Shown here: positions 3,826 to 48,723 of the stretch, one piece after another
Layout of the letters: each line of letters begins with the position of its first letter
How positions within the stretch are numbered: the stretch's first letter is position 1
NCBI GenBank assembly: GCA_963734095.1
Contig: CAVTGK010000040.1
Coordinates: 162,492 to 226,491 of the forward strand
Length of the DNA: 64,000 bases
Reading direction: 5' to 3'
Origin: an uncultured Acidobacteriota bacterium
GTDB taxonomy: Bacteria > Acidobacteriota > Vicinamibacteria > Vicinamibacterales > UBA2999
Notes under the pieces: model-generated
The model's database searches: none
What the model was told of the DNA's origin: nothing
Seen by the model: the letters and a program-made list of their open reading frames with translations, nothing else
Program-made: the position numbers and the translations under genes

Positions 3826-3830
3826 CGTGC

Positions 3831-3902
3831 AATCACTCAATCACCCAATGCAATCACCCAATCACCCAATCACCCAATCACCCAATCACCCAATCACCCA
3901 AT
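3831..3902. repeat. Tandem 8-bp repeat AATCACCC (6 perfect copies at 3852-3899 plus degenerate copies)
   Basis: Read directly. Only partly complementary (GGGTG core) to the 3742-3825 array. The + strand ORFs 3698..3987 (HPITQSPN...) are just translations of this repeat. Confidence 0.9.
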
Positions 3903-3976: not shown

Positions 3977-6906
3977 CTAGAAAATAAACCGGAAGCCGAC
4001 GCGCGCGGTAAACGGCGCCAGAATCAACGTCGGCTTCAGGTAGCTCAAACCCGTCGCGCGGCCGATCGTTTCGGACGCGTGGCTGTTGGTGATGTTGAAG
4101 AGATCCAGGTACGCACGGATGCGAGTCCGACTGTTCAGCGTGATTGTCTTCTCCGTGCGCACGTCGAATACCCAGATGTTGTCTTCTCGATTGGCGTCAG
4201 CCGGCTCGGCATAGGCGGTCTGGCGATCGCCCGTGCCGCTGGTCGCAATCAGGTCGGGGCGCGAAACGGGATTGGCGGCGGCCGTCGTCGAAATGACCAC
4301 CGTGCGGGCAAAGTTGACACCCGACTGATGGCGCAGGACAGGAGAGAGCCGGATTCCCCACGGGGCCTCGTAGCTGCCTATTGCCTTGAGCCCCCACGTC
4401 GAGCGGTCCTGCACGCCAGGCATGTTCGGGTTGTTTGGGAACAGATCGTTCGGGAAGTTGGTGAGCATCGTGTAGCCGCCACCAACTTGCGCCGACCACT
4501 TGTTGGCGAAGCGCTTCGTGGTCGAGACCTCGATGGTCTTGTAGCGGCCATACCGCGGCACGTTCATGACAACCTGGTCGGCCGGGAAGAGGGTGTTGGC
4601 ATTTGCCGCCGGCAAACCCAACATCCTGATGATTTTATCGTCGGCGGTCCCAGCCCTGCCGTCGACACCAATATCGGTGAAGTCGAACGGCACCGTGAAC
4701 ACTTCCGGCCCGCGACCTGGCTGAAAGGTGTCGATCAGGTCGTCTTCGGTCTTGTAGACGAACCCGGCTCTCGCGCCCATAGAGTCATTCAGCTGGCGCT
4801 CGAACCAGACCGCTGCTTCGTGCGAGTACGGCGCCTTGATGTTCGGATCGACACGGATCGCGCCTTCGAGCGCGGCCGTGACAAACGTGGTCTCTTCGCC
4901 TGGCTGCCAGCGCTTGTCGCCCGCGATGCACCCGGCGCACGCTAGTTGGTCATTCCAGTTCCACGTGGAGGACTTACTGGCGATATTCGCGTTGCCGCTG
5001 GCTGGCACGCTGACGCCCGGGTTGTGCCAGTAGAGGCCGTAGTTGGCCTTCACGACCGTCCTCCCGTCGCCGCTCAGATCGTAGATGAAACCCACGCGCG
5101 GCGCGACCTGGTTCCACGTGAAGAGGTCCGTCTGCGGGAAGGTCTTGGCGTCCACCGATGCGCGGCCAACGGTCGCGCCGAGCTGCTGCTGCTCCGGCAA
5201 CCAGCCCTTGTAGTAGTCATAGCGGACGCCGCCATTGATCGTGACACGCCCGACCTGCCACGTGTCGTTGATGAAGAAGCCGATCTGATCGAGCGCCGCG
5301 CGGGACGTGAGGGCGCCGTTGTCGTTGTCCTTCAGGCTGCCGACGCTCGTTGCCGTGGGCAGACCGAAGATCACCTGCGTCGAGTTGCCGTTGTTGTAGA
5401 CCTGTTCGATATTGCTTGTGCCGCCGCGGCGCGAGAGGAAGCCTTCCCACGACTGCTCCTTCAGCAGCTCGCCGCCCATCTTGAACGTGTGGCTGCCCTT
5501 GGCGGTATCGAGAAAGTAGGTCGCGGCGCCCGTCCACTGCTTGCGGTCGCGATCGAGCTGCTGGCGCCTGATGCGCACCTTCAGAGATCAGCTGGCCCGT
5601 GTCGTGCCAGAAGAAGTTGTCAGGGCTGTTGGTGATGAGCGGGAAGTAGTACCCGAAGTCACCGTAGCGTGCTTCGAGATAAAGCTTGTCGGTGAGCGTC
5701 CCGTTCCATTCGGCCTTGTAGACCCAGCTGCCCGAGTCCTGCGCGAACGTCTGCTCGGGAGACAGGTAGCTGTAGGTCGCGAACGGCAGCCGATTCGGCT
5801 GTTCCTTCTGACCCCACTGGTAGTAGCCGATGATCTTGTGGTTCTGGTTCAGCTGATAGGTCCCCTTCACGACCGGGTTCCACAGCTTGGTGTCGAACGT
5901 CTTATCGAATTGGAAGTTCGGCTGCGCGACTGCATTGAATTGCTGCCGGAAAGTGCCGAAGTACCAGAGCTTGTCCCGCTTGATCGGTCCGCCGGCGTTG
6001 ATGTCGTGGTCGTAATAGCGCTCGATCTCGTTGCTGTGCGCCCGGATGGCATTGCTGCCATTGGTGCCGTTGAAGGCGGTCGGCGACGTGTAGTCGCTCG
6101 GGCAAGTTCGAGCCCTGCAGGGAGCTGTTGTACCAGTCGAGATGGTACTCGCCGAAGAACTGATTGGCGCCCGAGCGCGCGATGAACTGCGACTGCACGC
6201 CGGGGTTCGGCATCTCGGCCGACTGGCCCGATGTGCCGATAAACGCCTCCTCGAGCGACGCGTAATCGAAATAGAAACCGGCACCGCCTGTGCCTTCTGT
6301 CGTGTTGATACCTTCGATGAGCACACGTACCTGGCCGTTGAAGCCATAGGCGGTATAGCCGCTTTGCGTGCCGGCTCGGTTGCCGCCCACATCGACGCGA
6401 GCCATTGCCACCGATGGCGTGATCGCCAACAGGGCCCACATGTCGCGAGCGTTGGGAATCGACTGCAGTTGTTCGAGCTTGAAGTTCTGCTGAATACGAG
6501 TCGCGGACGTGTCGATGACGGGGGATTCACCCGTGACCGTGACCGTCTCTTGAAGTGTGGCGAGCACGAGCTCGATGTTGATGGTGGCCGTGAAGCCGAG
6601 TGTTATCAGAATGCCTTCCCGCTTCACACCGCTGAACCCGGCCAAGTCGTACGTCACGGTATAGGTGCCGGGCGGCACTGCCGGGAATCGATAGTTGCCG
6701 GTCTCGGAGCTGACCGTCGTCTGCGCTCCGAGCATCGACGGGCTGGTCGCAGTCACGGTCACGCCAGGGAGCACCGCGCCCTGCGCATCGGTGACGCGAC
6801 CTTGAATCGTGCCGGTGCTACTGGCACCACCGCCCTGCGCATAGGCAGGCGCGGCGACCGCGAGAGTCAGCGCGGCGATCAGCAATCCGCCAAGACAACG
6901 CTTCAT
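3977..6906 (-). pseudogene. TonB-dependent receptor with N-terminal CarboxypepD_reg domain, copy 1; two frame disruptions (about 6100 and about 5580)
   Basis: Three ORF pieces join colinearly into one receptor: 5902..6906 (signal peptide, GTIQGRVTDAQGAVLPGVTVTA), 5217..6530 and 3977..5578 (ends ..ARVGFRFIF*). The span is 2930 nt, not a multiple of 3. Confidence 0.85.
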
Positions 6907-10699: not shown

Positions 10700-10806
10700 T
10701 CGGCCGGTGGCCGGCGGCCGGGTAGTTTCCAGTTGCCAGTTACCAGTTCAAAGGGACTGGCCAACTGACAACTGACCGGAGGCCGGAGCCCTGCTGCCGG
10801 CCACCG
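10700..10806. repeat. Word hairpin (CCAGTT / AACTGG words, outer GGCCGG stem) downstream of eamA
   Basis: cggccggtggccggcggccgggtagtttccagttgccagttaccagttc-aaaggg-actggccaactgacaactgaccgg...gccggccaccg. Confidence 0.8.
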
Positions 10807-10820
10807 ACTCGTCCCTGTGT

Positions 10821-11726
10821 TCACACCGCGGGGTTCAGTCTCGTCACCGCGATTCCGCTCAGGATCAGCGCCGCGCCGAGGAGCTGTTGGCCGGTAATCC
10901 GCTCGCCAAGCCAGACGGCCGCCACGACCATGGCAACGATGGGTGTGAGATTGCTGTAGACCGCAGTCCGCGCGCTGCCGATCTCCTGTACCGCGGTGTA
11001 CCAAATCATGTACGCGAGAGCGAGCGCCAGCAGCGAGGACGCCGCCATCAACAGCCAACTCAGTGCTGAGATACGAGCCCAGTCGGTGGTGATGAGCGAA
11101 GGGAACGCCCCGATGCCGTAGAGGACGGCGCCGATCATCATCGCCCAACCCGTGACGACGAGCGGCGAGTGTCGCTTGAGCATCGGCTGTGCAGCCACCG
11201 AGTAGAGCGACCAGCACAGCATTCCGCAGAACACCAGAAGATCACCCACAAAGGTTGCGGCCGACAGCTCCGCCCGGTGACCGACGAGCGCGTAGATTCC
11301 AGCGAGTGACAACGCAGCGCCGCCCCACCGGGCCGCCGTGAGACGTTCATGCCCGGCAACGGACGACATGATCGCCACCGCCACTGGCGTGCATCCGAAC
11401 ATCAGTGCACTGTTCGCGACGCTCGTTCGCGCGAGGCCAGCGAGGAAAAACAATTGATAGAGAACCGTGCCGACGAGCGCGAGCATGACCAGAGTTGCCC
11501 ACTCGCGACGAGTCAGGCGCGGTTGGGGAGGTCGTTCGCCGGCGGCGGACTGGCGCTGGTGTCGTAGCATCGCGACCAGAAACACCGCGCCTGCCAGCAC
11601 GAGCCGCATGGCGTTGAACGAGACCTCGGGGAAGTCCCGAAGCGCGTATTTGATGGCGGAGAAGTTGGCGCCCCAGATGCCGACCATCAGGAGCAGCAGG
11701 AGGTCGAGACGGGAAAAGCGGCCCAT
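10821..11726 (-). CDS. EamA/DMT-family transporter
   Basis: 301 aa with 10 predicted TM segments. The N-terminus ..LLLMVGIWGANFSAIKYAL.. is typical of the EamA family. Confidence 0.8.
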   Translation of the reverse strand: MGRFSRLDLLLLLMVGIWGANFSAIKYALRDFPEVSFNAMRLVLAGAVFLVAMLRHQRQSAAGERPPQPRLTRREWATLVMLALVGTVLYQLFFLAGLARTSVANSALMFGCTPVAVAIMSSVAGHERLTAARWGGAALSLAGIYALVGHRAELSAATFVGDLLVFCGMLCWSLYSVAAQPMLKRHSPLVVTGWAMMIGAVLYGIGAFPSLITTDWARISALSWLLMAASSLLALALAYMIWYTAVQEIGSARTAVYSNLTPIVAMVVAAVWLGERITGQQLLGAALILSGIAVTRLNPAV

Positions 11727-11781: not shown

Positions 11782-11871
11782 GTGACCAGTTCGACCGCAA
11801 CCTCGACTCTTTGAACTGGTCACTGGCAACTGGAAACTAGCCGGCCGCTGGCTACCGGCCACTGGCCACCG
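11782..11871. repeat. Word hairpin (CCAGTT family) upstream of eamA
   Basis: gtgaccagttc-N20-gaactggtcac, then actggcaactggaaactagccggccgc... Positions 11813-11848 are the reverse complement of 10714-10749 with 2 mismatches in 36. Confidence 0.8.
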
Positions 11872-11878
11872 GCGTGAG

Positions 11879-14852: not shown

Positions 14853-14970
14853 GGAGTTACAAGTTACAAGTTCACAAGTTACAAACCGCTGGGCCGATCC
14901 ACTCGCGCTCCAGGAGCAGCTCTGACCGAAAACTTGGCAACTCAACTTTGAACTTGTAACTTGTAACTTC
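14853..14970. repeat. Word hairpin H1 (GTTACAA words)
   Basis: ggagttacaagttacaagttcacaagttacaaacc-loop-aacttggcaactcaactttgaacttgtaacttgtaacttc. Ends 4 nt before the next start codon. Confidence 0.85.
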
Positions 14971-17102: not shown

Positions 17103-17170
17103 AGTTACAAGTTACAAGTTCAAAGTTGAGTTTGGGAGTTTGTAACTTGGAACTTGTAACTTGTAACTTC
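17103..17170. repeat. Word hairpin H2 (GTTACAA words), inverted copy of H1
   Basis: Positions 17103-17132 are the perfect reverse complement of 14939-14968 (30 nt). Ends 5 nt before the hemC ATG. Confidence 0.85.
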
Positions 17171-19766: not shown

Positions 19767-20743
19767 AGCTCGAGCGACGGTTTCGACGCTTGCGCCGCAC
19801 GCCGGCGCTGCGTCGCCTGGTCCGCGAAACACGGTTGTCGGCGGATCAGTTCGTTTTGCCTCTTTTTGTCTGCGAAGGCGGCGGCGTTCGTCGTGAGGTG
19901 TCGTCGATGCCCGGCGTGTATCAATTGTCGGTGGACGAGGCCGTCACTGAGGCTGCTGCTGCGCGGAGTGACGGCGTCCCCGCGGTCTTGCTCTTCGGGC
20001 TGCCGAATGAGAAGGACGACGAGGGATCCGCGGCAGAGGATCCGGCCGGCCCCGTTCAACAAACCGTCCGGAGAATCCGCGATTCAGTCGCCGACATGGT
20101 CGTCATCACCGACGTCTGCCTTTGCGAGTACACGTCTCACGGGCATTGCGGAATCGTGGCTGATGGAGAGATCGTGAACGATGCCACGGTCGACCGACTC
20201 GTGCGCGCGGCGATCTCCCATGCCCGAGCCGGGGCCCATGTCGTCGCCCCGTCCGACATGATGGACGGACGTGTCGGGGCCATCCGGTCGGCGCTCGACG
20301 AGGCCGGATTCGACCAGGTCGCGATCATGAGCTACGCGGCAAAGTACTGCTCCGGGTTCTACGGACCGTTTCGTGAGGCGGCCGATTCGGCCCCGCAGTT
20401 CGGCGATCGCCGGAGCCACCAGATGGATACGGCCAACGTCGAAGAAGCGCTGCGGGAGGTGGCACAAGACATCGATGAGGGCGCTGATATCGTGATGGTC
20501 AAGCCGGCAATGCCGTACCTCGACGTGATTTGGCGCGTCCGCGAGCGATTCGGATATCCAACCGCAGCCTATCAGGTGAGCGGCGAGTACTCGATGATCA
20601 AAGCCGCCGCCCGCAACGGTTGGATCGATGAAGAGCGCGCGATGCTGGAGTCACTGACGGCCATTCATCGTGCGGGCGCGGAGATCATCATCACGTACTT
20701 TGCGCGCGAAGCGGCTCGGTGTGGTAAGAGGGCTAGGGCATAG
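19763..20743 (+). CDS. hemB: Porphobilinogen synthase (delta-aminolevulinate dehydratase)
   Basis: 326 aa. ..[27 protein letters not shown].. Confidence 0.9.
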
Positions 20744-20830
20744 GGCGTAGGGGCGTAGAGATGGGCCTAGGGGCTGTGCCCTGACGCCCTGGCCCTGCGC
20801 CCTGGCCCTGCGCCCTGCGCCCTGTGCCCT
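20727..20830. repeat. Word hairpin (GGGCRTA / GCCCTG words) filling the hemB-hemL gap
   Basis: agggctagggcatagggcgtaggggcgtagag...gccctgacgccctggccctgcgccctggccctgcgccctgcgccctgtgccct. Contains the hemB stop and abuts the hemL ATG. Confidence 0.85.
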
Positions 20831-22132: not shown

Positions 22133-22298
22133 GGGTTCTTGAAGGAGGTTCTTGACGAAGGTTCTTCACGCAGGTTCGACGGAGGTTCTTCACCGGGGTT
22201 CTGCGAAGGTTCGTGACGGGGTTCTCGCGAGAACCTTCGTCAAGAACCATTGTGGAACCGTCGTGAAGAACCTCCGTCGAGAACCGTCGTTAAGAACC
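22133..22298. repeat. 166-bp palindrome built of 11-14-nt GGTTCTTSA words between convergent genes
   Basis: 8 left units containing GGTTCT/GGTTCG and 6 right units containing AGAACC/GGAACC. Symmetry centre is ctcgcgag at about 22228. Confidence 0.85.
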
Positions 22299-22305
22299 AA
22301 AACAC

Positions 22306-29031: not shown

Positions 29032-29115
29032 GAGTTCCACGGTTCCAGGTTCCAGGGTTCCGGGTTTTCGCCGCACGCCGCAGCCTTGCTGAACCTTGGA
29101 ACTTTGGAACCTTGG
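29032..29115. repeat. Word hairpin (GGTTCC / GGAACC words)
   Basis: gagttccacggttccaggttccagggttccgggtt-loop-gaaccttggaactttggaaccttgg. Confidence 0.85.
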
Positions 29116-31295: not shown

Positions 31296-31388
31296 CAGGG
31301 CACAGGGCGCAGTGGCATAGGGCGGAGGGCGCGACAGGATTGAGGCCCAATCCCTCCTATGCCCTGCGCCCTGTGTCCTACGCCTGTC
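31296..31388. repeat. Word hairpin (GGGCRCA words) between pyrE and truA
   Basis: cagggcacagggcgcagtggcatagggcggagggcgcgac-aggattgaggcccaatccctcc-tatgccctgcgccctgtgtcctacgcctgtc. Confidence 0.85.
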
Positions 31389-33811: not shown

Positions 33812-33946
33812 ATCGCAGGGCACAGGGCAGGGGTACGGGCACAGGGCACAGGGAATAGGGCGTAGGGCATAGGGCGGGCTAGGGACAGGGACTGAGGGCC
33901 CTAATCCCTCCCCTATGCCCTGTGCCCTGCGCCCTCTGCCCTGTAC
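33801..33946. repeat. Word hairpin (GGGCRCA words), asymmetric (about 90-nt left arm, about 40-nt right arm)
   Basis: Shares the loop core tgagggccctaatccctcccctatgccctg with 31296-31388. Confidence 0.85.
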
Positions 33947-36627: not shown

Positions 36628-37862
36628 GCCAGCCTCATCAGTCCTTGTGCGTCCCGAACGACAATGCCGCCGGGCACGAAGGCGGGGAGCGCCCAGGTCT
36701 CGCCGTCGGCGACCTCGATTCGGCGTTCCTCGCTGAACTTCACGGCATCACGTTTGGCTACGATCAGATCGCCAGCGTTGGTCAGGAAGATGACGTGCGA
36801 AGGGCCCAACAGAATCGAGGCGTGGTCGCCCTCGCGTCCGTCGGTGGCCCAACGAACCGCTCCGGTTGCGACGTCGAGCGCCACCAACTGCCCTTTCCGC
36901 TTGTTCGACATCCCGTACAACGTCCCGTCCGCCACGACCGGCGCGCTCATATACATCGTCACTTCGGCGTTCTTCCACACCGGCGTTGCCTGCCATGTGC
37001 CGCCGCTGGTGGCGAGCGCGAAGGCTTGCGTTCCCTGCCGCACGCCGCTCACAATCAAATGCGTCCCGGTCCACACCGGCGTGATGATGTTCTCGTGCCA
37101 CTCGTCGCGAAAATCGATGGACCACAGTGAGGCGCCGGTCACGGCGTCGATCCCGGCGATCGATCCGTTGGTGAGCGCGACGATCTGTCTCGTCCCGCCT
37201 ACCGTGATGGCGATCGGCGACGCATAGCCTGGGCCCAACCCCTTCCATGTCCAACGTTCGTTCCCATTGGTTGGGTCGACAGCCATGACGCGTCCACCAT
37301 GGACGTCGCTACCGACCTGAACGATCAGCGACCCGCCCTCGAGCATTGGCGACATGGCTGTCCCACAGAACAACTTCGAGGTGTCGACCGACGCCGAATA
37401 GTCTTTGCGCCACGCCACCGAACCATCAGCCGTGTTCCACGCCGACAGCACGCCGGTGACTCCGAGCGTGTAGACACGACTGCCAACGACGATCGGCGTC
37501 GAGTTCGGCCCTTTGGCCATCTTCACGGCGTACTGATTCTTCGCAAACGTTGCCGGGTATTTCTGCTGCCAGAGCACCTTGCCAGATTGAAGATCAATTG
37601 CGGTAACAATCTCCTCCGGGTCGCGTCGGCTGTGAACATAGACGCGGTCACCTGAGACCACCGGCGACGAATACCCCTCTCCGACTTCGACCCGCCAGAC
37701 GCGCTTCACCGATGCGGGCCAGGGTGACGGCAGGCTACCGGCTCCGACGGCGCCGTCACGAGTCGGTCCACGCCACTGGGTCCATTCCTGCGCCGACGCG
37801 GGCAGGGTGAGGGCTGCCGCGACAATGAGTGAATGCGTGATTGGGTGATTGAGTGATTGCAT
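36615..37862 (-). CDS. PQQ-like (BamB-type) beta-propeller repeat protein
   Basis: ..EWTQWRGPTRDG.. followed by repeated propeller blades. The start was chosen at MQSLNHPITHSLIVAAALTLPASA. The first codons are encoded by the GGGTGATT repeat. Confidence 0.75.
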   Translation of the reverse strand: MQSLNHPITHSLIVAAALTLPASAQEWTQWRGPTRDGAVGAGSLPSPWPASVKRVWRVEVGEGYSSPVVSGDRVYVHSRRDPEEIVTAIDLQSGKVLWQQKYPATFAKNQYAVKMAKGPNSTPIVVGSRVYTLGVTGVLSAWNTADGSVAWRKDYSASVDTSKLFCGTAMSPMLEGGSLIVQVGSDVHGGRVMAVDPTNGNERWTWKGLGPGYASPIAITVGGTRQIVALTNGSIAGIDAVTGASLWSIDFRDEWHENIITPVWTGTHLIVSGVRQGTQAFALATSGGTWQATPVWKNAEVTMYMSAPVVADGTLYGMSNKRKGQLVALDVATGAVRWATDGREGDHASILLGPSHVIFLTNAGDLIVAKRDAVKFSEERRIEVADGETWALPAFVPGGIVVRDAQGLMRLAWGS

Positions 37863-38745
37863 TGGCTGAATGGGTGATTGTGATAGGCACAGGGCGCAGG
37901 GCACAGGGCACAGGGTCGGGACGCAGGGTGCAGGGCGCAGCTCGCAGAGATCTAGTGCCCTGCTCCCTACCCTGAGCCCCGTGCCCTGTGCCCTCGCCCT
38001 GTCTTAGATTTCGCCGTCCCGGTCTGCACAGCCCGCGGAGCGGGCATTGACCGTCCCGCTGCTTCGTCCCAAAACCGCACGCTTTCATCATGCCGATGTG
38101 GCAGAGCGAAAAGTCGAAGCGCACGGGATCGACCGGGTCGAGCGCGCGGAGCGATCGGGTGATGTCGGCCGCCATTCGCCAACCCGGGCTGGTGTATCGG
38201 GTCAGCCGCAGGCATCGACCGACACGAATCACGTGGGTGTCGAGGGGCACGATCAGTTGGGACGGCCGCACGTGCGACCAGATACCCAGGTCGACCTCGT
38301 CACGCCGAACCATCCAGCGCAGGAAAAGATTCAACCGCTTGCACGCGCCGCCGCTCGAGGGACGCGCAAAGAAGTACGACACGCCGGGACGGGAGGGAAC
38401 GCGACCGTAGATCGCGTCGAGATTCAGGCCGCACGCGCGCGTGGAAAACGCGTCGAGAGCGGCTTCGACGGTCTCTGCGCCATCGTCCAGCCCGTCGGCG
38501 AAGAAGCCTTCGATCGAACCTCGCCGGTCGATCATCTGGCGGAGGACCCACACAAGGGCCGCGAGGTCCACGCCGCGGGTCCATCGGTGCTGCAAATGAT
38601 CGAGGGCGCGCCGATCACGGCCAGGGTCGAAAGCCCGGACATAGGCGGCCGGCGAAGGACCCATCACCTTCAGCAGGCCTTCAATTGAATTCAAAACGCT
38701 TTGCACACGGCCGAATGCCAGTGCCGCGGCGCAGAATCCCACCAC
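37756..38745 (-). CDS. TIGR02757 (DUF2400)-family protein; both ends uncertain
   Basis: ..VVGFCAAALAFGRVQ..LNLFLRWMVR..CPLRGLCRPG. Homology continues upstream of 38745 (..LDALYHQFNDAQSVTDPIQIVRRFS..) with no in-frame ATG or GTG. The last 86 codons only translate the repeat and overlap the next gene. Confidence 0.55.
   Translation of the reverse strand: MVGFCAAALAFGRVQSVLNSIEGLLKVMGPSPAAYVRAFDPGRDRRALDHLQHRWTRGVDLAALVWVLRQMIDRRGSIEGFFADGLDDGAETVEAALDAFSTRACGLNLDAIYGRVPSRPGVSYFFARPSSGGACKRLNLFLRWMVRRDEVDLGIWSHVRPSQLIVPLDTHVIRVGRCLRLTRYTSPGWRMAADITRSLRALDPVDPVRFDFSLCHIGMMKACGFGTKQRDGQCPLRGLCRPGRRNLRQGEGTGHGAQGREQGTRSLRAAPCTLRPDPVPCALRPVPITITHSANAITQSPNHAFTHCRGSPHPARVGAGMDPVAWTDS
37828..38003. 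repeat. GGGTGATT word array (37828-37885) fused to a GGGCRCA word hairpin (37884-38003)
   Basis: gagtgaatgcgtgattgggtgattgagtgattgc..., then ataggcacagggcgcagggcacagggcacagggtcggg...gtgccctgctccctaccctgagccccgtgccctgtgccctcgccctgtc. Confidence 0.85.
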
Positions 38746-39907: not shown

Positions 39908-41264
39908 TGAGCTGAGGTCCACAGGCGAGCCGGTCCTGGCTTCTTCGAACGTCAGCGTCGCGACCTCCCGGTTCGCAAACACGACCCGTCCACCGACGAC
40001 GGTGGCGGCAACGCCGCCACGCAGCGTCCATCCGTGAAACGGCGTGTTTTTCGAGCGGCTGCGGAATCGTGCGCGATCGATCGTCACTTCGAGGTCGGGA
40101 GCCAGGATCGTGATATCGGCCGGTCCCCCCACGGCCAGTGTGCCGCCCGGGACACGGAGAATTCGCGCTGGATTCACTGCCATCAGTTCGATCAGCCGCG
40201 ACAGCCGGATCAGGCCGGAATGCACCAGTCGGTCGAGCGCAAGCGGGATCGCGGTCTCCAAGCCAACGATCCCGAACGGCGCGCGATCGTATTCGACCTG
40301 CTTCTCGTCGTAATGGTGCGGCGCGTGGTCGGTGGCGATCACGTCTACGCTGCCATCCGCGATGCCCGCGAGCATCGCGTCGCGGTCTCGCGCTTCGCGA
40401 AGCGGCGGGTTCATCTTGGTGTTCGTGTCGTAGGGCACCGGATCGGCGAGCCAATCATCGGTCAGCGTGAAGTGATGAGGCGCAACCTCGCAGGTGACCT
40501 TCACGCCGCGGTGTTTCCCCTGTCGCACGGCTTCGAGCGTGGTCCAGGCGCTCATATGTGCGATGTGCACGTGACCGCCGGTCATTTCGGCCAACAACAC
40601 GTCGCGGGCCGCCATGATCGACTCGGCGGCGCCCGGGATCCCTCGCAGGCCCAACTCCGCGGCCCGCGGACCCTCGTGGGCGCAGCCCTCACCCTTCAAC
40701 GAGAGATCCTCGCAGTGCTCGATCATCGGCATGTCGAACATGCTCGTGTACTCGAGCGCGCGGCGCGCCAACAACGCCGACGCCACCGGATGCCCATCGT
40801 CGGTCACGGCCACGCACCCGGCGGCTCGCAGTTCGGCGATGTCGGCCAGTTGCTCGCCCTGCTGCCCGCGCGACACCGCGCCGATCGGATAGACGCGCGC
40901 CAGACCGGCCTCCTTCGCCTTGCGCAGGATCAGTTCGGTGACGCCCGCGTTGTCGTTGACCGGATTGGTATTGGGCATGCAGGCCACAGCCGTGAATCCG
41001 CCCGCGACCGCGGCCGCGGTGCCGGTCGCAACCGTTTCCTTGTGCTCCTGTCCAGGCTCGCGCAGGTGGACGTGCATGTCGATCAGACCAGGACAAATCA
41101 CCAGCCCACGCGGAATCGACGACCACGTGCCCCGCGTCTGCCCACGAGGCCGGAAGGTCGCGGTCGACTCGCGCGATGCGATCGCCCTCGATGAGGATGT
41201 CGAAGTCGCCGTCGATTCCCGCCGCGGGATCGACGAGACGGCCTCCCTTAAGCAGCCGCTTCAT
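39905..41264 (-). pseudogene. pyrC: Dihydroorotase with one frame disruption near 41110
   Basis: N-terminus in ORF 40689..41264 ([37 protein letters not shown]). The rest is in ORF 39905..41101 (ICPGLIDMHVHLREPG..). One extra base at the junction. Confidence 0.85.
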
Positions 41265-42219
41265 GATCCACTCCTCCTGCGAGGAGGTAGAGCACGGCCA
41301 TGCGCACGGCTACCCCATTCGCCACCTGGTCGAGAATCACGGAGAACGGACCGTCGGCCACCTCCGACGCGATCTCAACCCCTCTGTTCATCGGTCCCGG
41401 GTGCATGATGATGACGTCCGGCTTGGCCCGGCTGACGCGCGCTTCGGTCATCCCGAACGTCGTGAAGTACTCGCGCAATGACGGGAAGAAGCCGCCCTCC
41501 ATGCGCTCCAACTGAATCCGCAGCATCATCACGACGTCGGCATCACGGACGGCTTCATCAACTGCAGTCGTGACGTGCACACCCAGGCGATCGAGCCCTG
41601 GCGGTATCAGCGTGGCTGGGCCACACACCCAGACCTCAGCACCGAGCTTCGTCAGCAGCAGGAGGTTGGACCGCAGCACCCGGCTGTGCAACAAGTCGCC
41701 GAAGATGGCGACCTTCAATCCCGACACGCGTCCCTTGCGTTCGCGAATCGTGTAAGCATCCAGCAGTGCCTGGGTGGGATGCTCGTGCATGCCATCGCCC
41801 GCATTGATGATGCCGGCGCGGCAGATGCGCGAGAGCAGGTGGCAGGCGCCCGACGAGCTGTGCCGCAACACAATCATGCTCGGCGCCATGGCCTCGATGT
41901 TCATCGCGGTATCGACCAGGGTTTCGCCCTTGACCACGCTCGACGTGCCGATGGCCACGTTGAGCGTGTCGGCGCTGAGCCGCTTCTCGGCGATCTCGAA
42001 GGAGGTGCGTGTCCGGGTGCTCGGCTCGAAAAACAAGTTGACGACCGTACGGCCCCGGAGCGTCGGCACCTTCTTGATAGCTCGCTGACCGACTTCCTTC
42101 ATCGCCTCGGCAGTGTCGAGAATCAGCACAATCTCCTCGGCGCTGAGGTCGGCGATGCTCAAGAGATCCTTGCGACGCAAGGCCGTCAGCGACTGTTTCG
42201 GGGTTTGAACGGCTTCCAT
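41248..42219 (-). CDS. pyrB: Aspartate carbamoyltransferase catalytic subunit
   Basis: 323 aa. ..[21 protein letters not shown].. Confidence 0.9.
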
Positions 42220-42222
42220 GGC

Positions 42223-42759
42223 TCACTCCGCGCGGTCGATGGTTACTTCGTCGGTCCCATCGAGCTCGAGCAGTCGGACGTGAATGCTCTCCTGCTGCGA
42301 CGTGGGGACGTTCTTGCCGACGTAATCGGCCTTGATGGGGAGCTCGCGGTGCCCGCGGTCGACGAGCGCGACCAGTTGAATCGTTTTGGGGCGACCGAAA
42401 TCAATCAGCGCATCCAGTGCGGCCCTGGTCGTGCGCCCCGTGTAGAGCACATCATCCACAAGAATGATGGTGCGGTCGTCGATCGAGAACGGAATCTCCG
42501 TACGGCGCACCAGCGGCTGTGGACCGACCTGATGCCGCATCAGGTCGTCGCGATACAGCGTGATATCCAGCGCTCCGGTTGAGACCTGATCGCCGGTGAT
42601 CTGCGCCAACGCGCGCGCAATGCGTTTGGCCAACGGGACGCCGCGACTGCGCACGCCGACCAGAGCGATATTCTCGACGCCGCGATTCCGTTCGACGATT
42701 TCGTGGGCGATGCGCGTGAGTGCGCGTGAGATGCGGTCCGCGTCCATGATTACCGGCAT
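42223..42759 (-). CDS. pyrR: Bifunctional pyrimidine operon regulator / uracil phosphoribosyltransferase
   Basis: 178 aa. ..[24 protein letters not shown].. Confidence 0.9.
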
Positions 42760-42852
42760 GGACGGACCTCGTGGCAGGTCGTCATGGTCCCCTCTTCGCG
42801 AACTCGCAGGTTCGCAGTTAAAGAGCTGTCTCAGTATAGCGCAGGACTGACG

Positions 42853-42936
42853 AAGGTGCCTACGGTGCCTCGGTGCCTGGGGTGCCTAAGGTGCTGGTGC
42901 AAGAAGTGCGTTCGGTGCCTAAGGTGTATGAAGTGC
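42853..42936. repeat. GGTGCCT word array: left arm of a split hairpin
   Basis: aaggtgcctacggtgcctcggtgcctggggtgcctaaggtgctggtgcaagaagtgcgttcggtgcctaaggtgtatgaagtgc. About 70% reverse-complementary to 44375-44467. Confidence 0.8.
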
Positions 42937-43330
42937 AAACAAAACCCTGAGCCGGCTTGGGCGCTTCAGTTTTAACGAACGTCGCACCACCTGGACAGGC
43001 GCGATCCGAGCATGCCCACGGCCAGATAGCCAACGGTGGGCCATTTCCGCGAGGAATCCGAACGTTGAGGCCGATTCGATTCCTGCGTGGCTGACCATTC
43101 GACCAAAAGAGCCGGTCGCGCGACCGACTGGATCCAAAACCATCGTTACTGGACGTACTCAGTAATCGAATCGGTGACCTGACGCGAAAACGTCGCCGGC
43201 ACGGTCGAGAGCTGCTCGATACGCCGCTGATCGCCGGCAAACGTTTGCGCCGAGGCGTCTGTTTTCCCTCTTCGTGATGGCCGCGACGCGAGGAAGTACA
43301 CGCCCGGGAATATCGGCGTAGAATTGCGCC

Positions 43331-44251
43331 ATGCACGGGGGCCCGGCAGGCATCCACTCTCGGGTAACGAGGCGGCTCGCTGTGCGGATTCTGCTGACCG
43401 TGCTGATTGTAAGCGGAACAGCCCATCCTCGACCCGTCTGGCCCTTCGCATGGGCGGCGCAGGATCGTGCGGATGCTACCAACGGTGTCGTCGAGGTTGA
43501 GGGCGGTCGCATCTACTACGAGGTGACTGGGCAAGGACCAGCGCTGGTTCTCATCCACGACGGCATCCTCCACCGCGAAACGTGGGATGAGCAGTTCGCC
43601 GAATTCGGCCGTTCGTTCCGGACCGTCCGCTGGGATCGTCGCGGCTACGGAAAGTCGCCCGCTCCTCAGGCGCCGTTCTCACATATCGATGACCTGCTCC
43701 TGGTCATGAAAGCGCTGAAGATCGAGCGCGCCGCTCTGATCGGCTGCTCGGCTGGAGGCATGCTGGCGCTACATTTCGCGCTCGATCATCCCGCGATGGT
43801 GAGCGCGTTGGTGCTCGTCGGCCCGATTGTCAGTGGCCTGCCATTCTCCGATCACTTCGTGACTCGTGGCGGGCGGAAGATTCCTCCCCCCGGCAGTCCT
43901 GCCGAAGATAGGATCGATTACTGGACGTCGAAGGATCCCTGGATTACCGCTCCGACCAGCGATGGCGCGAAGCGTAAGATGCGCTCACTCATGGAGGCGA
44001 ATCCGGCGAACGGCGCGGGCGGGCAACACGCACGCTGGTCCGAGCCAGTCCTGGGCCGGTTATCGCAGATCAAGGTTCCGACCCTCTTGATCGCCGGCGA
44101 GTCGGACATTCCCGACGTGCATAGCAGTATGGGTGCGATTCAGGCTGGCGTCCCGGCCGTCACGCGCGTCGTGTTGGCGCATGCGGGCCATTTGCCGCAT
44201 CTTGAAGTGCCACAAGCCTTCAACGCAGAAGTGTTGAAGTTCCTTCGGTAA
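43331..44251 (+). CDS. Alpha/beta-fold hydrolase
   Basis: 306 aa. ..LVLIHDG..LIGCSAGGMLAL..LLIAGESD..AHAGHLPHLE.. Confidence 0.8.
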   Translation: MHGGPAGIHSRVTRRLAVRILLTVLIVSGTAHPRPVWPFAWAAQDRADATNGVVEVEGGRIYYEVTGQGPALVLIHDGILHRETWDEQFAEFGRSFRTVRWDRRGYGKSPAPQAPFSHIDDLLLVMKALKIERAALIGCSAGGMLALHFALDHPAMVSALVLVGPIVSGLPFSDHFVTRGGRKIPPPGSPAEDRIDYWTSKDPWITAPTSDGAKRKMRSLMEANPANGAGGQHARWSEPVLGRLSQIKVPTLLIAGESDIPDVHSSMGAIQAGVPAVTRVVLAHAGHLPHLEVPQAFNAEVLKFLR

Positions 44252-44374
44252 GGTTCGACGATGGCGGCAGCCTACAAGGACTGATTCGTCGGTAGATTGC
44301 ATTCACCAACGCGGGCGTGTCGGCGCAAAGTTAGGGTCATCAAACTTTTCGAAAGATTTGCGCGCGTTTCGGAG

Positions 44375-44467
44375 GCACTGTTACACGCACTTAGGCACTT
44401 CTGGCACCTTTCGCACTTTAGGCACCAGCACGCCAGGCACCTTCGGCACCCAGGCACGCCAGGCACT
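44375..44467. repeat. AGGCACC word array: right arm of the split hairpin
   Basis: gcactgttacacgcacttaggcacttctggcacctttcgcactttaggcaccagcacgccaggcaccttcggcacccaggcacgccaggcac. Confidence 0.8.
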
Positions 44468-44478
44468 CTTACCCCTTT

Positions 44479-46239
44479 TCACCTCCCGTAACTTGGAATG
44501 AACGTGATCGGTTGATCGGCGGTGAACTCGGGCTTGAAGAGATCGGTTCGTGCGAAGCCTTCCATGTCTCGCCCGACCGGCAGGCCCAGGTAGTACAAAA
44601 CGGTTGGCGTCAGATCGAGGACGGATGCTCGCGGCGGGCGGCTGGGCGCCACGGCGACGCCATAGGCCAGCAGAAAGCCGTCCGGCGACCGCTCGTGGCT
44701 GCCGCTGAGCCGGTCGTTTCCCACCAGACGTTCGAGCATGCGTTTGCCTGGCGTCAAGGGCTCCATGCCGAATCCGGACACCACGAGTAGCAAGTCGTTC
44801 GTGCCCATGGACTGCAGAACCTGGCCCACGACGGCATCAATGAAGCCGTAGTAGTCGCCGAGCACACGACCGTAGCGGCGTTGCTCGTCGGCCGACACAT
44901 CGCCAAACTCCGAGGGGTTGGCATACCGCAGGAAGTAGTGCCCTACCGCATCGAGCCCTGGCAGCCTGACGGCAATGACCTGCGGCGTCATCGAGACGTC
45001 GAGCGCCGACAGGATCTGGACGTGCATGCGATCGGCGGCGATCGGCGCCGGATCGGGTCGCGCGTCGGCGTCCCCTTGCGGCGCCTCGGCCACCTTGGAC
45101 ACGACAGCGATCGGATCGACGGTGGGTGGCTTCTGCAAAGCAGCGCGGATCGAGGCGTACAGTGACGGCGGTGCGATCGCGGACGCGTGACCGTGATCCA
45201 CGTCCACATCCGCCATTCGATGAAACTCGTCGCTGACGATGAAGCCGTTCACAGTGGTCGCCGGATGCGTGAGCGGCCAGCCGATGAATCCGACCGAGAC
45301 GCCAGCGTCGCTGAGAATCGTCCACAGCGGCCGCGACTGCAGTGCGCCGGCATCATGGGCCTGCTCATCGAGAAAACCAAACCGCACGAGCGCGTAGGCG
45401 AAGCAGTAGTCGGGCAGCATCTCGAGTGCCGGGCCGGCCTCTCGGGCGCGGTACAAGGTGGAGGCACGAATGCCGTTGGCGAACGGCACACGGCCCGTGA
45501 TCGCCGCGCTCCACACCGGCTCTGCTTGCGTTGGACGCAGCGTGGCAAGGTGCAGGACGGCGCCGGCATCGAAGATTCGCCCCAAATTCGGCAAGCGTCC
45601 TTCCGCTACCGCTGGAGAGATCACGTCGAGACTGCCACCATCGACCGCGACGATCAGCACTCGTGCGTCGGTTCGCGCTGGTCCGAGGCCGACGACGGCC
45701 GCACTGGGACGCGACGCCAGCGTGCTGGCGCGACCGGGTCCCCGCGCCGCCAGCGGCGCCGCCACCGAGATTGCCATCATCGCCGTCAACAGCACGGCAC
45801 TGACGCGCCCTCCTCGCCGCCCGAGATGGGCGAGCGCGATCAGCAAAAACACGACCGTCGACGCCGACAGCGTGACGGCGCCCGCCGTCATCCGCGTCAC
45901 GGTTTGCGGGTCCAGCACCATCGTGAAAACGCGCAGATTGAGCCACATGATGGTCGCACACACACCCGCGGCGATCGTGCAGAGCCACGAGAGCAGACGG
46001 ACGCTCAACCACCCCGGTGACAACACCTCGCTCGCCAGCATCTGGCGACCGACGATCAGTGCGAAGAAGAACGCCGTCACGGAGATGCCACACGCCACGA
46101 CCAGGACGAGCGCCAGCGGCACGACAGCGCCGACGGTGAGCGGGAACGACGGATTGAGATGCAGGATCAGGATCGTCAGGTAGAGGGATGCCAGCGCACC
46201 GGCGATCGCCGCATTCGACAGCATTCGCAGAAAGCGCAC
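44479..46239 (-). CDS. Membrane-anchored alkaline-phosphatase-superfamily protein (type I phosphodiesterase/nucleotide pyrophosphatase-like)
   Basis: 586 aa. About 5 N-terminal TM helices, then ..VLIVAVDGGS..PTQAEPVW..LPGLDAVGH..VVSGFGM.. Confidence 0.7.
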   Translation of the reverse strand: MRFLRMLSNAAIAGALASLYLTILILHLNPSFPLTVGAVVPLALVLVVACGISVTAFFFALIVGRQMLASEVLSPGWLSVRLLSWLCTIAAGVCATIMWLNLRVFTMVLDPQTVTRMTAGAVTLSASTVVFLLIALAHLGRRGGRVSAVLLTAMMAISVAAPLAARGPGRASTLASRPSAAVVGLGPARTDARVLIVAVDGGSLDVISPAVAEGRLPNLGRIFDAGAVLHLATLRPTQAEPVWSAAITGRVPFANGIRASTLYRAREAGPALEMLPDYCFAYALVRFGFLDEQAHDAGALQSRPLWTILSDAGVSVGFIGWPLTHPATTVNGFIVSDEFHRMADVDVDHGHASAIAPPSLYASIRAALQKPPTVDPIAVVSKVAEAPQGDADARPDPAPIAADRMHVQILSALDVSMTPQVIAVRLPGLDAVGHYFLRYANPSEFGDVSADEQRRYGRVLGDYYGFIDAVVGQVLQSMGTNDLLLVVSGFGMEPLTPGKRMLERLVGNDRLSGSHERSPDGFLLAYGVAVAPSRPPRASVLDLTPTVLYYLGLPVGRDMEGFARTDLFKPEFTADQPITFIPSYGR

Positions 46240-46249
46240 TCTTGGATTC

Positions 46250-46376
46250 TAGTTCGGAGTTCGGAGTACGGGAGTTCGGCGTTGGTTCGACGTTCGGAGT
46301 TCGGAGTTCGGGTTCGGGGTACGGGGTTCTGAGTTCTGTTCTGAGTTCTGTTGCTGAGTGCGGAGTTCTTGGCGCG
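46250..46376. repeat. GTTCGGA / GTTCTGA word array: left arm around the four-helix-bundle gene
   Basis: gttcggagttcggagtacgggagttcggcgttggttcgacgttcggagttcggagttcgggttcggggtacggggttctgagttctgttctgagttctgttgctgagtgcggagttc. Confidence 0.8.
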
Positions 46377-46396
46377 GGAGTTGCCTTCATGTCCGC

Positions 46397-46765
46397 ATGC
46401 CCTGGCGACAATTCACGGAAATCGAGGCTTGGAAGCTCTGTATGAGATTGAGCCAGGAATTCGAGGCAATTCTTGACAGGCCGCCGGCCTCCCAAGATCG
46501 CAAGTTCTGCGAGGAGGCTCGTGATGCCGCCCTCTCGTCGCCGCGAAACATCGCTGAGGGCTTTGGCCGGTTCGGCAATCGAGAGTTCGCCAACTTCGTC
46601 AGCATCGCCCGAGCGAGCCTGATGGAGACACAGACGAATCTGCTCTTCGCGCGCGATGCCAGATTCCTATCAGCGCCGGAATTCAAAAGCCTGTGGGACC
46701 TTTCGGAGGAAGCTCTCTCAACAACCACCGGATTGCTCAAACATCTTCGCAGACGTCGGCCCTGA
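46397..46765 (+). CDS. Four-helix-bundle protein (23S rRNA intervening-sequence protein family)
   Basis: MPWRQFTEIEAWKLCMRL..RNIAEGFGRF..REFANFVSIARASLMETQT.L..A is the characteristic pattern of this family. The start at 46397 was chosen inside ORF 46358..46765. Confidence 0.8.
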   Translation: MPWRQFTEIEAWKLCMRLSQEFEAILDRPPASQDRKFCEEARDAALSSPRNIAEGFGRFGNREFANFVSIARASLMETQTNLLFARDARFLSAPEFKSLWDLSEEALSTTTGLLKHLRRRRP

Positions 46766-46782
46766 CGACGGAATAGGCGGCC

Positions 46783-46941
46783 AGAACTCAGCACGCCGCA
46801 GGCCGTATGCCGCAGGCCGAACGCCGCACGCGGCACGCCGAACGCCGAACGCCGAACAGAACTCAGAACCTCCGAACTCGGAACAAGAGCTCAGAACTCT
46901 GAACACTGCACCAACTCCGAACCCCGCACCCCGAACTCCGC
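46783..46941. repeat. TCAGAAC / TCCGAAC / GCCGAAC word array: right arm around the four-helix-bundle gene
   Basis: cagaactcagcacgccgcaggccg...gccgaacgccgaacgccgaacagaactcagaacctccgaactcggaac...ccgaaccccgcaccccgaactccgcag. Reverse-complement words of 46250-46376. Confidence 0.8.
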
Positions 46942-46961
46942 AGTTGGCTATACTCAACAAA

Positions 46962-47795
46962 ATGCCCGTTGACATCAACGCGGCTGTGATCAGCAACGTC
47001 AGGCTGTCGGAGGACTACAACGTTCTAGCGCTGGCGGCGCCCGCGATTGGCGAGCAGACGCAGCCCGGCCAGTTCGTCATGGTCAAGGCCGCATTGCCTG
47101 CCGATTCGCTGCTGCGGCGACCATTCTCGGTCTTTGAGGTCGTGCGGGACAACGGCCGCGTGGCCGCGATCAGCATCTTCAATAAACGCGCCGGTCAGAA
47201 CACGCGGGCGTTGTATGAGCTCGAACCCGGCGAGCGTGTCGCTTGCCTTGGCCCGCTTGGAAAGTCGTTCTCACTAGCGCCGTACGACGCGTGGATGGTG
47301 GCTGGTGGCGTCGGGTTGGCGCCGTTTGCGACACTCGCCGAACGCCTGACGCAGTCCCGCATCAAGACGACGCTTTTCTATGGCGCGCGTCGAGCCGGCG
47401 AGTTGTTCTATCTGGACTTCTTCGAACGACTGGGAGTCACGCTCGTGCTGTCGACCGAGGACGGAAGTCGCGGCGTGCGGGGCCGAATCACTTCGCCGCT
47501 CGAATCCGCGTTGGCGTCACTGCCCGGGCGCGATCAGGTCATGATCTACGGCTGCGGACCTGAGCCAATGCTCGAGGCAGTCACCAGGCTGGCCGTAAAG
47601 TATCGACAGCCCTGTGAGGTTTCCGTCGAACGCGTCATGGGATGCGGCCTGGGCGGCTGCTATAGCTGTGTTGTTCCAGTCCGCAATGGGGATGGCGGAC
47701 CGCACTTCGTACGCTCATGCCTGGCCGGACCAGTATTTGATGGATCCCAAATCGTGTGGGACTTCTTCCCGGGTGGCACCGATGCACCCGCCTGA
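46962..47795 (+). CDS. pyrK: Dihydroorotate dehydrogenase (class 1B) electron-transfer subunit
   Basis: FAD/NAD-binding fold with a C-terminal 2Fe-2S motif, MGCGLGGCYSCV...C. The ATG at 46962 lies 7 nt after a TATACT hexamer. The upstream part of ORF 46656.. only translates the repeat. Confidence 0.85.
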   Translation: MPVDINAAVISNVRLSEDYNVLALAAPAIGEQTQPGQFVMVKAALPADSLLRRPFSVFEVVRDNGRVAAISIFNKRAGQNTRALYELEPGERVACLGPLGKSFSLAPYDAWMVAGGVGLAPFATLAERLTQSRIKTTLFYGARRAGELFYLDFFERLGVTLVLSTEDGSRGVRGRITSPLESALASLPGRDQVMIYGCGPEPMLEAVTRLAVKYRQPCEVSVERVMGCGLGGCYSCVVPVRNGDGGPHFVRSCLAGPVFDGSQIVWDFFPGGTDAPA

Positions 47796-48723
47796 TTTGC
47801 GGGTACGCGTCGGGCCGATCGAGTTGCCCAATCCGATCATCGCCGCGAGCGGCTGCTTCGGCTACGGACTCGAGTACGAAGACATCGTCGATCTGTCGCT
47901 GCTCGGCGGTGTGGCCGTCAAGGGACTGTTCTTGCGGGAGCGTCAGGGCCACCCGCCACAGCGTATTGCAGAGACGCCCTCAGGCATGCTCAACGCCATC
48001 GGCCTGCAAGGGATCGGCGTGCACCGATTCGTGCGAGAGAAGTTGCCCTTGCTGCGCGAGCGTGGCGCACGAACGATTGTGAACATCTGCGGGACGACAC
48101 TCGACGAGTACGCGGAGGTTGCGCGCGTGCTGTCGGACGCGGAGGGCGTCGCCGCCATCGAGTTGAACATCTCGTGTCCCAACATCAAAGAAGGCGGCAT
48201 TCAGTTTGGCTGCAGCCTGGCGGGAACCGCAGAAGTCACCAGCGCGGTTCGCAAGGTGACGCGGCTCCCATTGATCCCCAAGCTGACGCCCAACGTCACC
48301 GACGTCGCCTCGTTCGCGCGGGCGGCGGAGGAGGCCGGCGCCGACGCCGTATCGCTGGTGAACACCTTCCTTGCGATGGCGATCGATGTCGAAACGAGAC
48401 GGCCGAAGCTGTCGAACATTCTCGGTGGCTTGAGCGGTCCGGCGATTCGACCCATCGCCGTGCGGATGGTGTGGGAGTGCTACCAGGCCGTGAAAATTCC
48501 CATCATCGGGATGGGCGGTATCACCGATGCGTCGGACGCGGTCGAGTTCATGCTGGCCGGATCGACCGCAGTGCAGATCGGAACCGCTAATTTCTCCGAT
48601 CCGTTCGTCTGGACGAAGGTCATCGACGGCCTCCGCAGCTATCTGCAGCGACACGGCGTTCAGCAGGTCACCGGGCTGGTCGGTGCGATTGATACCTCTC
48701 CGCGGCGAGAGGTGCACGCGTGA
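47782..48723 (+). CDS. pyrD: Dihydroorotate dehydrogenase catalytic subunit (class 1B)
   Basis: ..[25 protein letters not shown]... Overlaps the pyrK end by 14 nt. Confidence 0.9.

Follow-up and report, generated by a model that had tools for sequence, protein, structure and literature searches.

In a 64-kb stretch of DNA from an uncultured Acidobacteriota bacterium (the window, 64,000 nt of contig CAVTGK010000040.1), a tandem array of GGTGCCT-type units stands next to pyrR, and an array of the reverse-complement word AGGCACC stands 1.45 kb away, next to a gene of the AlkP superfamily. An alpha/beta hydrolase gene lies between the two arrays. The question raised by this locus is how two matching arrays came to enclose a gene. 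The original prediction, which was made from the letters of the window, left two options: a hairpin into whose loop DNA had been inserted, or a cassette with long degenerate terminal inverted repeats at its ends. We consider it likely that the arrays are the two arms of one ancestral hairpin, which was split by an insertion at its apex in this species. The coordinates of the features are collected in Table 1.

Neither array has a partner in its own vicinity. A repeat search was combined with a partner scan, in which every tandem array of the window was aligned as its reverse complement against all 64 kb. No local partner of either arm was found by these searches, as had been predicted, and in the scan each arm was the best reverse-complement partner of the other. 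The repeat search paired positions 42856-42926 with 44396-44466; these segments are 71 nt long, 73% complementary without gaps and 1469 nt apart, and a gapped local alignment of the arms spans about 81 nt. Over the whole window the word GGTGCCT is about as frequent as expected (8 matches vs 7.4). Five of the eight matches lie in 42855-42920 on the plus strand, two in 44420-44441 on the minus strand, and one is isolated elsewhere. Arms that were joined in silico by a GAAA loop folded into one continuous hairpin of -117.5 kcal/mol, consisting of 6-7 bp helices split by small internal loops. Dinucleotide shuffles of the joined arms gave -76.7 +/- 5.6 kcal/mol, which corresponds to a z score of about -7 to -8.

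The arrays had been described as colinear reverse complements that match at about 70% of positions over about 80 nt, with their blocks in the same order. The pairing held, while the common order proved only modest beyond word and register. The GTGC(CT) word cores pair between the arms at 28 of 28 positions, the remaining unit positions at only 15 of 31, and the series of unit lengths is identical in both arms (9,8,9,9,6,9,9). The gapped Smith-Waterman score was not significant against shuffles of unit order (observed 50, mean 46.9; 32% of the shuffles reached or exceeded the observed score), and this test was replaced by an ungapped register test together with the folding test. In the register test the observed value was 33, compared with 20.8 +/- 3.9 for unit-order shuffles, of which 1.2% reached the observed value. 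The collinearity of the arms beyond their shared word is real but modest, because the pairing stems from word cores and unit spacing and the spacers are unpaired.

Related loci were recovered by two routes. An exact-protein look-up with PyrR yielded the conspecific contigs L001 to L010, with nucleotide identities of 96-99%; the same look-up with the AlkP-family protein returned no record, probably because the start codon had been called differently. Loci L011 to L016 were recovered by a genome scan with the AlkP-family protein, the more distant metagenome-assembled genomes (MAGs) being labelled Acidobacteriota, Vicinamibacterales or Vicinamibacteria. An empty site was present in L013, a MAG of a sister species whose AlkP-family protein, PyrR and PyrB are 86%, 98% and 96% identical to those of the window. 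In L013 the stop of the AlkP-family gene and the start of pyrR are 314 nt apart, and the interval contains no hydrolase gene. It reads (GGTGCCT)n, a short loop and (AGGCACC)n and is thus a simple, uninterrupted hairpin. Its start is 8 nt past the AlkP-gene stop codon, and its folding energy is -140.9 kcal/mol (z -6.9). The right arm of this hairpin aligns unit by unit with the pyrR-proximal arm of the window at roughly 70% identity. Homology to its apex breaks off at window position 42936 at one end of the insert and at 44370 at the other. The first option of the original prediction, a hairpin with DNA inserted into its loop, is borne out by this site.

In about 45 related loci the AlkP-family gene directly adjoins pyrR. 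The two genes are 115-546 nt apart in L014, L015, L016 and about 40 metagenome loci, none of which has the hydrolase, and many of these intervals in distant relatives hold arrays or hairpins of other words. Among the roughly 45 lineages with a hairpin or an array at the site, cargo was found only in that of the window. The ancestral adjacency of the AlkP-family gene and pyrR is established by sequence comparison, because a metagenome scan with PyrR finds the genes adjacent in distant relatives. An insertion in the lineage of the window is the simplest reading, since the distant relatives with adjacent genes all lack the hydrolase. GGTGCCT arrays are lacking at the site in the outgroup L014. 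The window, L013 and L014 have the loop motif GCCTCCG in common, which suggests growth of the hairpin in situ.

Both arms and the hydrolase gene were present in all conspecific strains in one orientation, and the AlkP-gene-side arm differed among them by point changes only. The split architecture is not an assembly artefact, because it recurs, on contigs of 171-916 kb, in five to six assemblies that are independent of one another. In none of them was the enclosed segment seen inverted, a point that the original prediction had advised to check. The contig closest to positions 40001-48000 of the window was contig_29368 (MAG MFD00962.bin.1.9), with 99.2% identity over 8 kb and 97.2% in 42937-43330; none of the fetched contigs was identical to the window.

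The only Pfam families in the inserted segment are of the alpha/beta-hydrolase type. This agrees with what had been said of the segment, namely that it carries such a hydrolase at 43331-44251 (PF00561, E 2.8e-24) and no transposase; its small open reading frames (ORFs) had no Pfam match either. No recombinase gene lies in or beside the segment in the window. The stretch 42937-43330, described as having no confident ORF, contains frames of 57, 74 and 101 amino acids that matched no Pfam family. They were rejected as genes on this ground and on account of indels among strains, including one of a single nucleotide. A known RNA was not detected in these unassigned 390 bp either (Rfam at E<=1, ARAGORN). 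The non-hydrolase DNA of the insert had no similarity outside the species when it was compared by tblastx and blastn with all fetched loci.

The hydrolase is 97-99% identical among conspecific strains. Its nearest non-conspecific relatives, at 72-78% identity, are encoded beside CBM9/DUF5916, FAD-monooxygenase or beta-lactamase genes, and the intergenic gaps around them (16-74 nt) are too short for arms. Similarity to these relatives begins at about window position 43457, which leaves some 40 N-terminal residues outside it. No second copy of the arm-bounded unit exists within the window. The outer flanks, AAAGGGGTAAGA and TTCGTCAGTCC on the pyrR/AlkP-gene strand, have no common repeat that would be a target-site duplication.

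The inserted segment varies from strain to strain. The interval between the AlkP-family gene and pyrR measures 1712, 1789, 1973 and 3025 nt in four conspecific assemblies, and the indels sit 3' of the hydrolase stop, just 5' of the hydrolase start and by the pyrR-proximal arm. Upstream of the hydrolase (43098-43330) one indel of 1 nt and one of 6 nt distinguish the strains, and only some of them have a further segment of about 57-77 nt. Downstream of it (44252-44374) L001 and L012 have 134 nt more than the window, L003 has a replacement and L004 a deletion of 84 nt.

At 43035-43097 the segment contains a structured hairpin that is att-like. Its 3' end, GATTCGATTCCTGCGTGGCTGACCA, resembles the T-loop, acceptor stem and CCA of a tRNA; the likeness comprises only the T-loop-like TTCGATTCC and the terminal CCA, and the implied T-stem pairs at three of five positions. 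In L004 (6278-7654) an extra island of 1.38 kb directly follows this hairpin. On this island are a DNA_alkylation gene and a Phage_integrase that is truncated to its C-terminal half (PF00589, E 1.2e-12; profile positions 76-167 of 172). Copies of a 13-nt direct repeat, GAATGGTGAGCCA, lie on either side of the island; the repeat corresponds to positions 43089-43101 of the window. No such integrase occurs in the other conspecific strains or in the window. Contigs L007 (1-181) and L008 (1-125) diverge from the window at the same point as L004. Judged from these comparisons, the hairpin behaves as a putative att-like hot spot for further insertions in the loop, because the L004 island inserted there and L007 and L008 diverge there. 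Its 3' end, TTCGATTCCTGCGTGGCTCACCA, had no match in viral contigs. The 134-nt insertion of L001 (6179-6314), which is also present in L012, and the left end of the L004 island (6278-6320) both begin with CGAGTTGGAACC; this common start may be a fragment of another repeated or mobile sequence.

We propose that the ancestral site held a word hairpin, an imperfect palindrome of tandem GGTGCCT-type units followed by their complement, between the stop of the AlkP-family gene and the promoter of pyrR. In the lineage of this soil bacterium, whose MAG is Vicinamibacteria-related, about 1.43 kb was probably inserted at the apex, which left the arms 1.45 kb apart. The DNA may have been delivered by a site-specific integrative element of the tyrosine-recombinase type; this element would since have decayed and left behind the hydrolase gene, the att-like hairpin and non-coding debris. 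Taken alone, this integrase route of entry is a tentative suggestion to which we give somewhat less than even confidence.

The arms probably persist through retained local roles. The AlkP-gene-side arm starts 11 nt past the stop codon of the AlkP-family gene, and as sense-strand RNA it partly folds on itself through G-U pairs (-44.3 kcal/mol, z -2.4); it may serve that gene as a structure at the 3' end. The pyrR-proximal arm, for which no self-fold as RNA was obtained, has its end about 15 nt away from TATACT, the box in front of the conserved leader of pyrR. Its outermost unit provides a -35-like TAGGCA (42857-42862, minus strand), 18 nt from TATACT and a consensus match only, and the arm would belong to the promoter of pyrR, as a piece of its upstream or -35 region.

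Several observations weigh against a split by an integrative element. No integrase, direct repeat or target-site duplication bounding the hydrolase segment was found, and the insert resembles its flanks in GC content (0.59-0.64) and gives no compositional sign of foreign origin. The att-like hairpin was not called as a tRNA or transfer-messenger RNA (tmRNA) by ARAGORN in the window and ten loci, nor by Rfam at E<=1, and over the whole 174 nt its fold was no better than that of shuffles (z -1.07). The integrase route is one that we infer from a neighbouring and later insertion in one strain, L004. As to the split itself, L013 is the one available empty-site genome of the same word family: the PyrR scan of metagenomes returned solely relatives more distant than L013 (76-89% identity) and no second empty site with the GGTGCCT word. 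An insertion that predated the split of the two species, followed by loss of the cargo in L013, would require an equal number of events. The roles proposed for the arms were deduced from folding energies and a single match to the promoter consensus.

The rival explanations have to be weighed against the other hairpins of the window. Tandem Repeats Finder and the partner scan revealed about ten local word hairpins, in each of which an array of a 7-13 nt word is followed close by by its reverse complement. The word differs between sites, and some words recur nearby. Other split arms, for which the original prediction had proposed a search, were found once in the window. This second split hairpin (46251-46940) encloses a 23S_rRNA_IVP-family gene in its loop, and its arrangement is conserved in the sister species L013 (7300-8000). 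In L001 and L012 the whole 707-bp unit is replaced by a local GTGCCT/AGGCAC hairpin of 235 nt (L001, 4030-4265), built of the word of the hydrolase arms. No other 23S_rRNA_IVP-family gene was found in the window and the loci beyond this one locus. Two hairpins of the window thus have cargo in the loop, the hydrolase gene and the 23S_rRNA_IVP-family gene, vs about ten local hairpins without cargo.

EamA (10821-11726, minus strand) was considered as the cargo of a third split hairpin (10700-10776 / 11800-11873) and rejected, each side being a complete local hairpin. The flanking hairpins (10700-10790 and 11790-11873) share the words CGGCCGG and CCAGTT, and a 30-nt match with one mismatch between them mimics a split hairpin. 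In three other species EamA stands in its ancestral place beside atpE and is not enclosed by arms. Two further arrays, (CAATCACC)n at 3828-3902 and (GGTGATTG)n at 37826-37880, are reverse complements of each other with a local score of 75 and are 34 kb apart. The former abuts a GGTGCGA array and the latter a CAGGGCA hairpin; word reuse or a large rearrangement may account for the pair.

The rival that survives best accepts the split hairpin and differs in the route. Long palindromes break at the tip in E. coli, and the tip of this palindrome could have been broken, for example by SbcCD-type cleavage of a replication-associated hairpin or cruciform, with a hydrolase fragment captured during repair; the integrase-linked island of L004 would then be later and unrelated. 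The position of the insertion at the hairpin apex fits this route, as do the lack of bounding repeats and of an integrase, the clustering of several independent indels in the loop among conspecific strains, and the second split hairpin, whose cargo also lies exactly in the loop. However, nothing in this genome points directly to breakage or to a nuclease, about ten local hairpins of comparable kind have stayed intact in the window, and of the lineages that have a hairpin or array at the site, about 45, only one has cargo. We regard break repair as rather unlikely. The hydrolase segment has neither an integrase nor bounding repeats, so the integrase route and break repair are not separable at this locus.

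[quoted passage not shown] The number of events alone does not discriminate here, since only L013 shares the word. The missing GGTGCCT arrays in the outgroup L014 are in accord with a cassette, and so is the wholesale exchange of hairpins between strains, as where the GTGCCT hairpin of L001 and L012 takes the place of the GAGTTC arms and the 23S_rRNA_IVP-family gene of the window. In contrast, the window contains no transposase, target-site duplication or second copy, and the closest relatives of the hydrolase occur elsewhere without arms. Both arms are adjacent and cargo-free in L013. Hairpins of the same build and other words, free of cargo, occupy this site in other lineages and many sites in this genome; moreover, the cargo of one split hairpin in the window is unrelated to that of the other, and the GCCTCCG loop motif extends to L014. 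The arms are therefore not taken to be the ends of a mobile cassette, an explanation that we find very improbable.

It is still less probable that the arms are two independent arrays which came to share a word by its spread between neighbouring intergenic regions and never formed one hairpin. Words do recur nearby in the window, as in the AGTTACA hairpins at 14855 and 17103, the CAGGGCA hairpins at 31296, 33816 and 37886, and the like hairpins flanking EamA (10700 and 11800), and the gapped alignment of the arms was no better than that of unit-order shuffles. However, the other sites with recurring words are complete local hairpins, whereas the arms here have one polarity each; their unit-length register is collinear to a degree that few shuffles reached, and in L013 both polarities adjoin at the orthologous site. 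Finally, an invertible segment, with the arms as recombination sites that flip the hydrolase between the flanking genes, would suit the inverted repeats around a gene antisense to its neighbours and the tyrosine recombinase fragment of one strain, but it is scarcely credible in view of the single orientation in all five to six conspecific assemblies, the lack of a recombinase gene in or beside the segment in the window, arms that are only 73% complementary with unpaired spacers, and arms that occur without the enclosed segment in L013.

Table 1. Features of the locus, of the window and of related loci. Positions are those of the window unless a locus is named.
Feature	Position	Strand	Evidence and remarks
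pyrR-proximal arm	42853..42936		GGTGCCT-type units on +, AGGCACC on the pyrR/AlkP-gene strand; unit lengths 9,8,9,9,6,9,9,...
AlkP-gene-side arm	44375..44467		Repeat search; AGGCACC units on +, GGUGCCU in the 3' untranslated region of the AlkP-family gene
Inserted segment at hairpin apex	42937..44369		About 1.43 kb; ends uncertain by about 20 nt; absent from L013 and all more distant relatives
Alpha/beta hydrolase gene, 306 aa	43331..44251	+	PF00561 E 2.8e-24, PF12697 E 5e-20; antisense to both flanking genes
Att-like structured hairpin	43035..43097	+	3' end tRNA-like (..GATTCGATTCCTGCGTGGCTGACCA); single copy in window
Variable non-coding stretch	43098..43330		Between att-like hairpin and hydrolase start
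Terminator-like stem and T-run	43110-43129	-	Consensus match only
Variable spacer	44252..44374		Hydrolase stop to AlkP-gene-side arm; strain comparison
AlkP-superfamily membrane protein gene (type I phosphodiesterase / nucleotide pyrophosphatase)	44479..46239	-	PF01663 E 2.8e-15; upstream flanking gene
pyrR	42223..42759	-	PF00156; downstream flanking gene
pyrR leader	42790-42827	-	TATACT -10 at 42833-42838; motif CTCTTTAAC...GAAGAGG
pyrB	41248-42219	-	Third minus-strand gene
Second split word hairpin	arms 46251-46369 / 46791-46940		GAGTTC / GAACTC; no local partners
23S_rRNA_IVP-family gene	46358-46765	+	PF05635 E 1.3e-19; in loop of second split hairpin
Word hairpins, examples	14855-14969, 17103-17169, 20729-20830, 22134-22299, 29034-29115, 31296-31379, 33816-33944, 37886-38002		
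Lineage-specific arrays	L065 648-983, L095 308-647, L059 297-598, L047 315-537, L061 261-545, L111 874-1205		Words CCGTTCGGA, ACGGAG, GATCGCC, GAACGA, GAAGAAC

The minus-strand genes at 42200-46300 of the window are the AlkP-family gene, pyrR and pyrB, and the hydrolase gene lies between the first two on the plus strand. The motif of the pyrR leader was kept in every related locus that was inspected. The leader AGCTCTTTAACTGCGAACCTGCGAGTTCGCGAAGAGG, with TATACT before it (42790-42838, minus strand), is conserved down to a PyrR identity of 76%. It had no Rfam family match at E<=1; it is predicted to be a PyrR-binding attenuator and probably is one.

Word hairpins are not peculiar to the window. 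Across the order, word arrays or word hairpins occupy the same intergenic sites, one that separates the AlkP-family gene from pyrR and one that separates atpE from EamA, and each lineage has its own word. At the level of sequence comparison this implies a conserved position with rapid turnover of the sequence. The hairpins are built of site-specific words of 7-9 nt, and between strains at about 97% identity whole hairpins seem to be exchanged for others. No description of word hairpins in Acidobacteriota was found in the literature searched. They might represent an undescribed, lineage-wide class of fast-turnover intergenic palindromes in Vicinamibacteria-related Acidobacteriota, a landing-pad system whose apex is preferred for gene capture; we consider this broader proposal unlikely.

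The hairpin of L013 and the rejoined arms of the window are both intergenic, lie 3' of a gene and form a stable stem-loop, as extragenic palindromes do. The hairpin is not followed by a T-run and is therefore not a canonical intrinsic terminator. The REP sequences (repetitive extragenic palindromes) and bacterial interspersed mosaic elements (BIMEs) of enterobacteria are extragenic palindromes whose loops are targeted by the insertion sequences (IS) IS1397 and ISKpn1. The present locus resembles them in that a repeat-derived intergenic hairpin 3' of a gene takes foreign DNA into its loop and its halves are left as distant inverted repeats. However, a REP stem is a genome-wide family sequence of 20-40 nt, whereas the arms described here are 80-100 nt arrays of a site-specific 7-9 nt word, and the inserted DNA is no IS and has no transposase.

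Integrase islands at the 3' ends of tRNA and tmRNA genes are resembled by the L004 remnant, with its truncated Phage_integrase and 13-nt direct repeat after an element ending in TTCGATTCC...CCA. Unlike at such islands, no tRNA or tmRNA was detected, and the hydrolase segment has neither an integrase nor flanking repeats. MITEs and other non-autonomous transposons bounded by terminal inverted repeats likewise have long inverted repeats around a transposase-free segment, but here the arms stay at the empty site of L013, no target-site duplication or copy family is present in the window, and the arms are built of tandem words. The intervening sequences (IVS) of 23S rRNA also carry a gene in the loop of a long stem, and their gene family, PF05635, recurs in the neighbouring hairpin at 46251-46940. 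However, neither of the two hairpins of the window lies in rRNA, and the cargo at the main site is a hydrolase gene.

The heptamers of the cyanobacterial short tandemly repeated repetitive (STRR) sequences are short tandem intergenic repeats. The TAACTGA repeats of Beggiatoaceae are of the same kind (PMC4679880). Both are similar to the word hairpins in being abundant intergenic tandem arrays of 7-nt words. They differ in being mainly direct arrays of a few genome-wide words, whereas here an array usually has its reverse complement behind it, the two forming a long hairpin, and the word depends on the site and the lineage. The finding was rated as a gene insertion into an extragenic palindrome, which works like the insertions into REP sequences and BIMEs and like the islands at tRNA ends and is a member of none of the systems compared.

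With an occupied site, the empty site of a sister species and several intermediate strain variants, the locus turns a distant pair of inverted repeats into a dated event. It thereby offers a natural series in which the entry of DNA into long palindromes can be studied. Many long tandem-word hairpins occupy conserved intergenic positions in these Acidobacteriota, and their word changes between lineages and even between strains. If it is true that their tips attract insertions, they would be a new factor in the gene gain of abundant and poorly studied soil bacteria.

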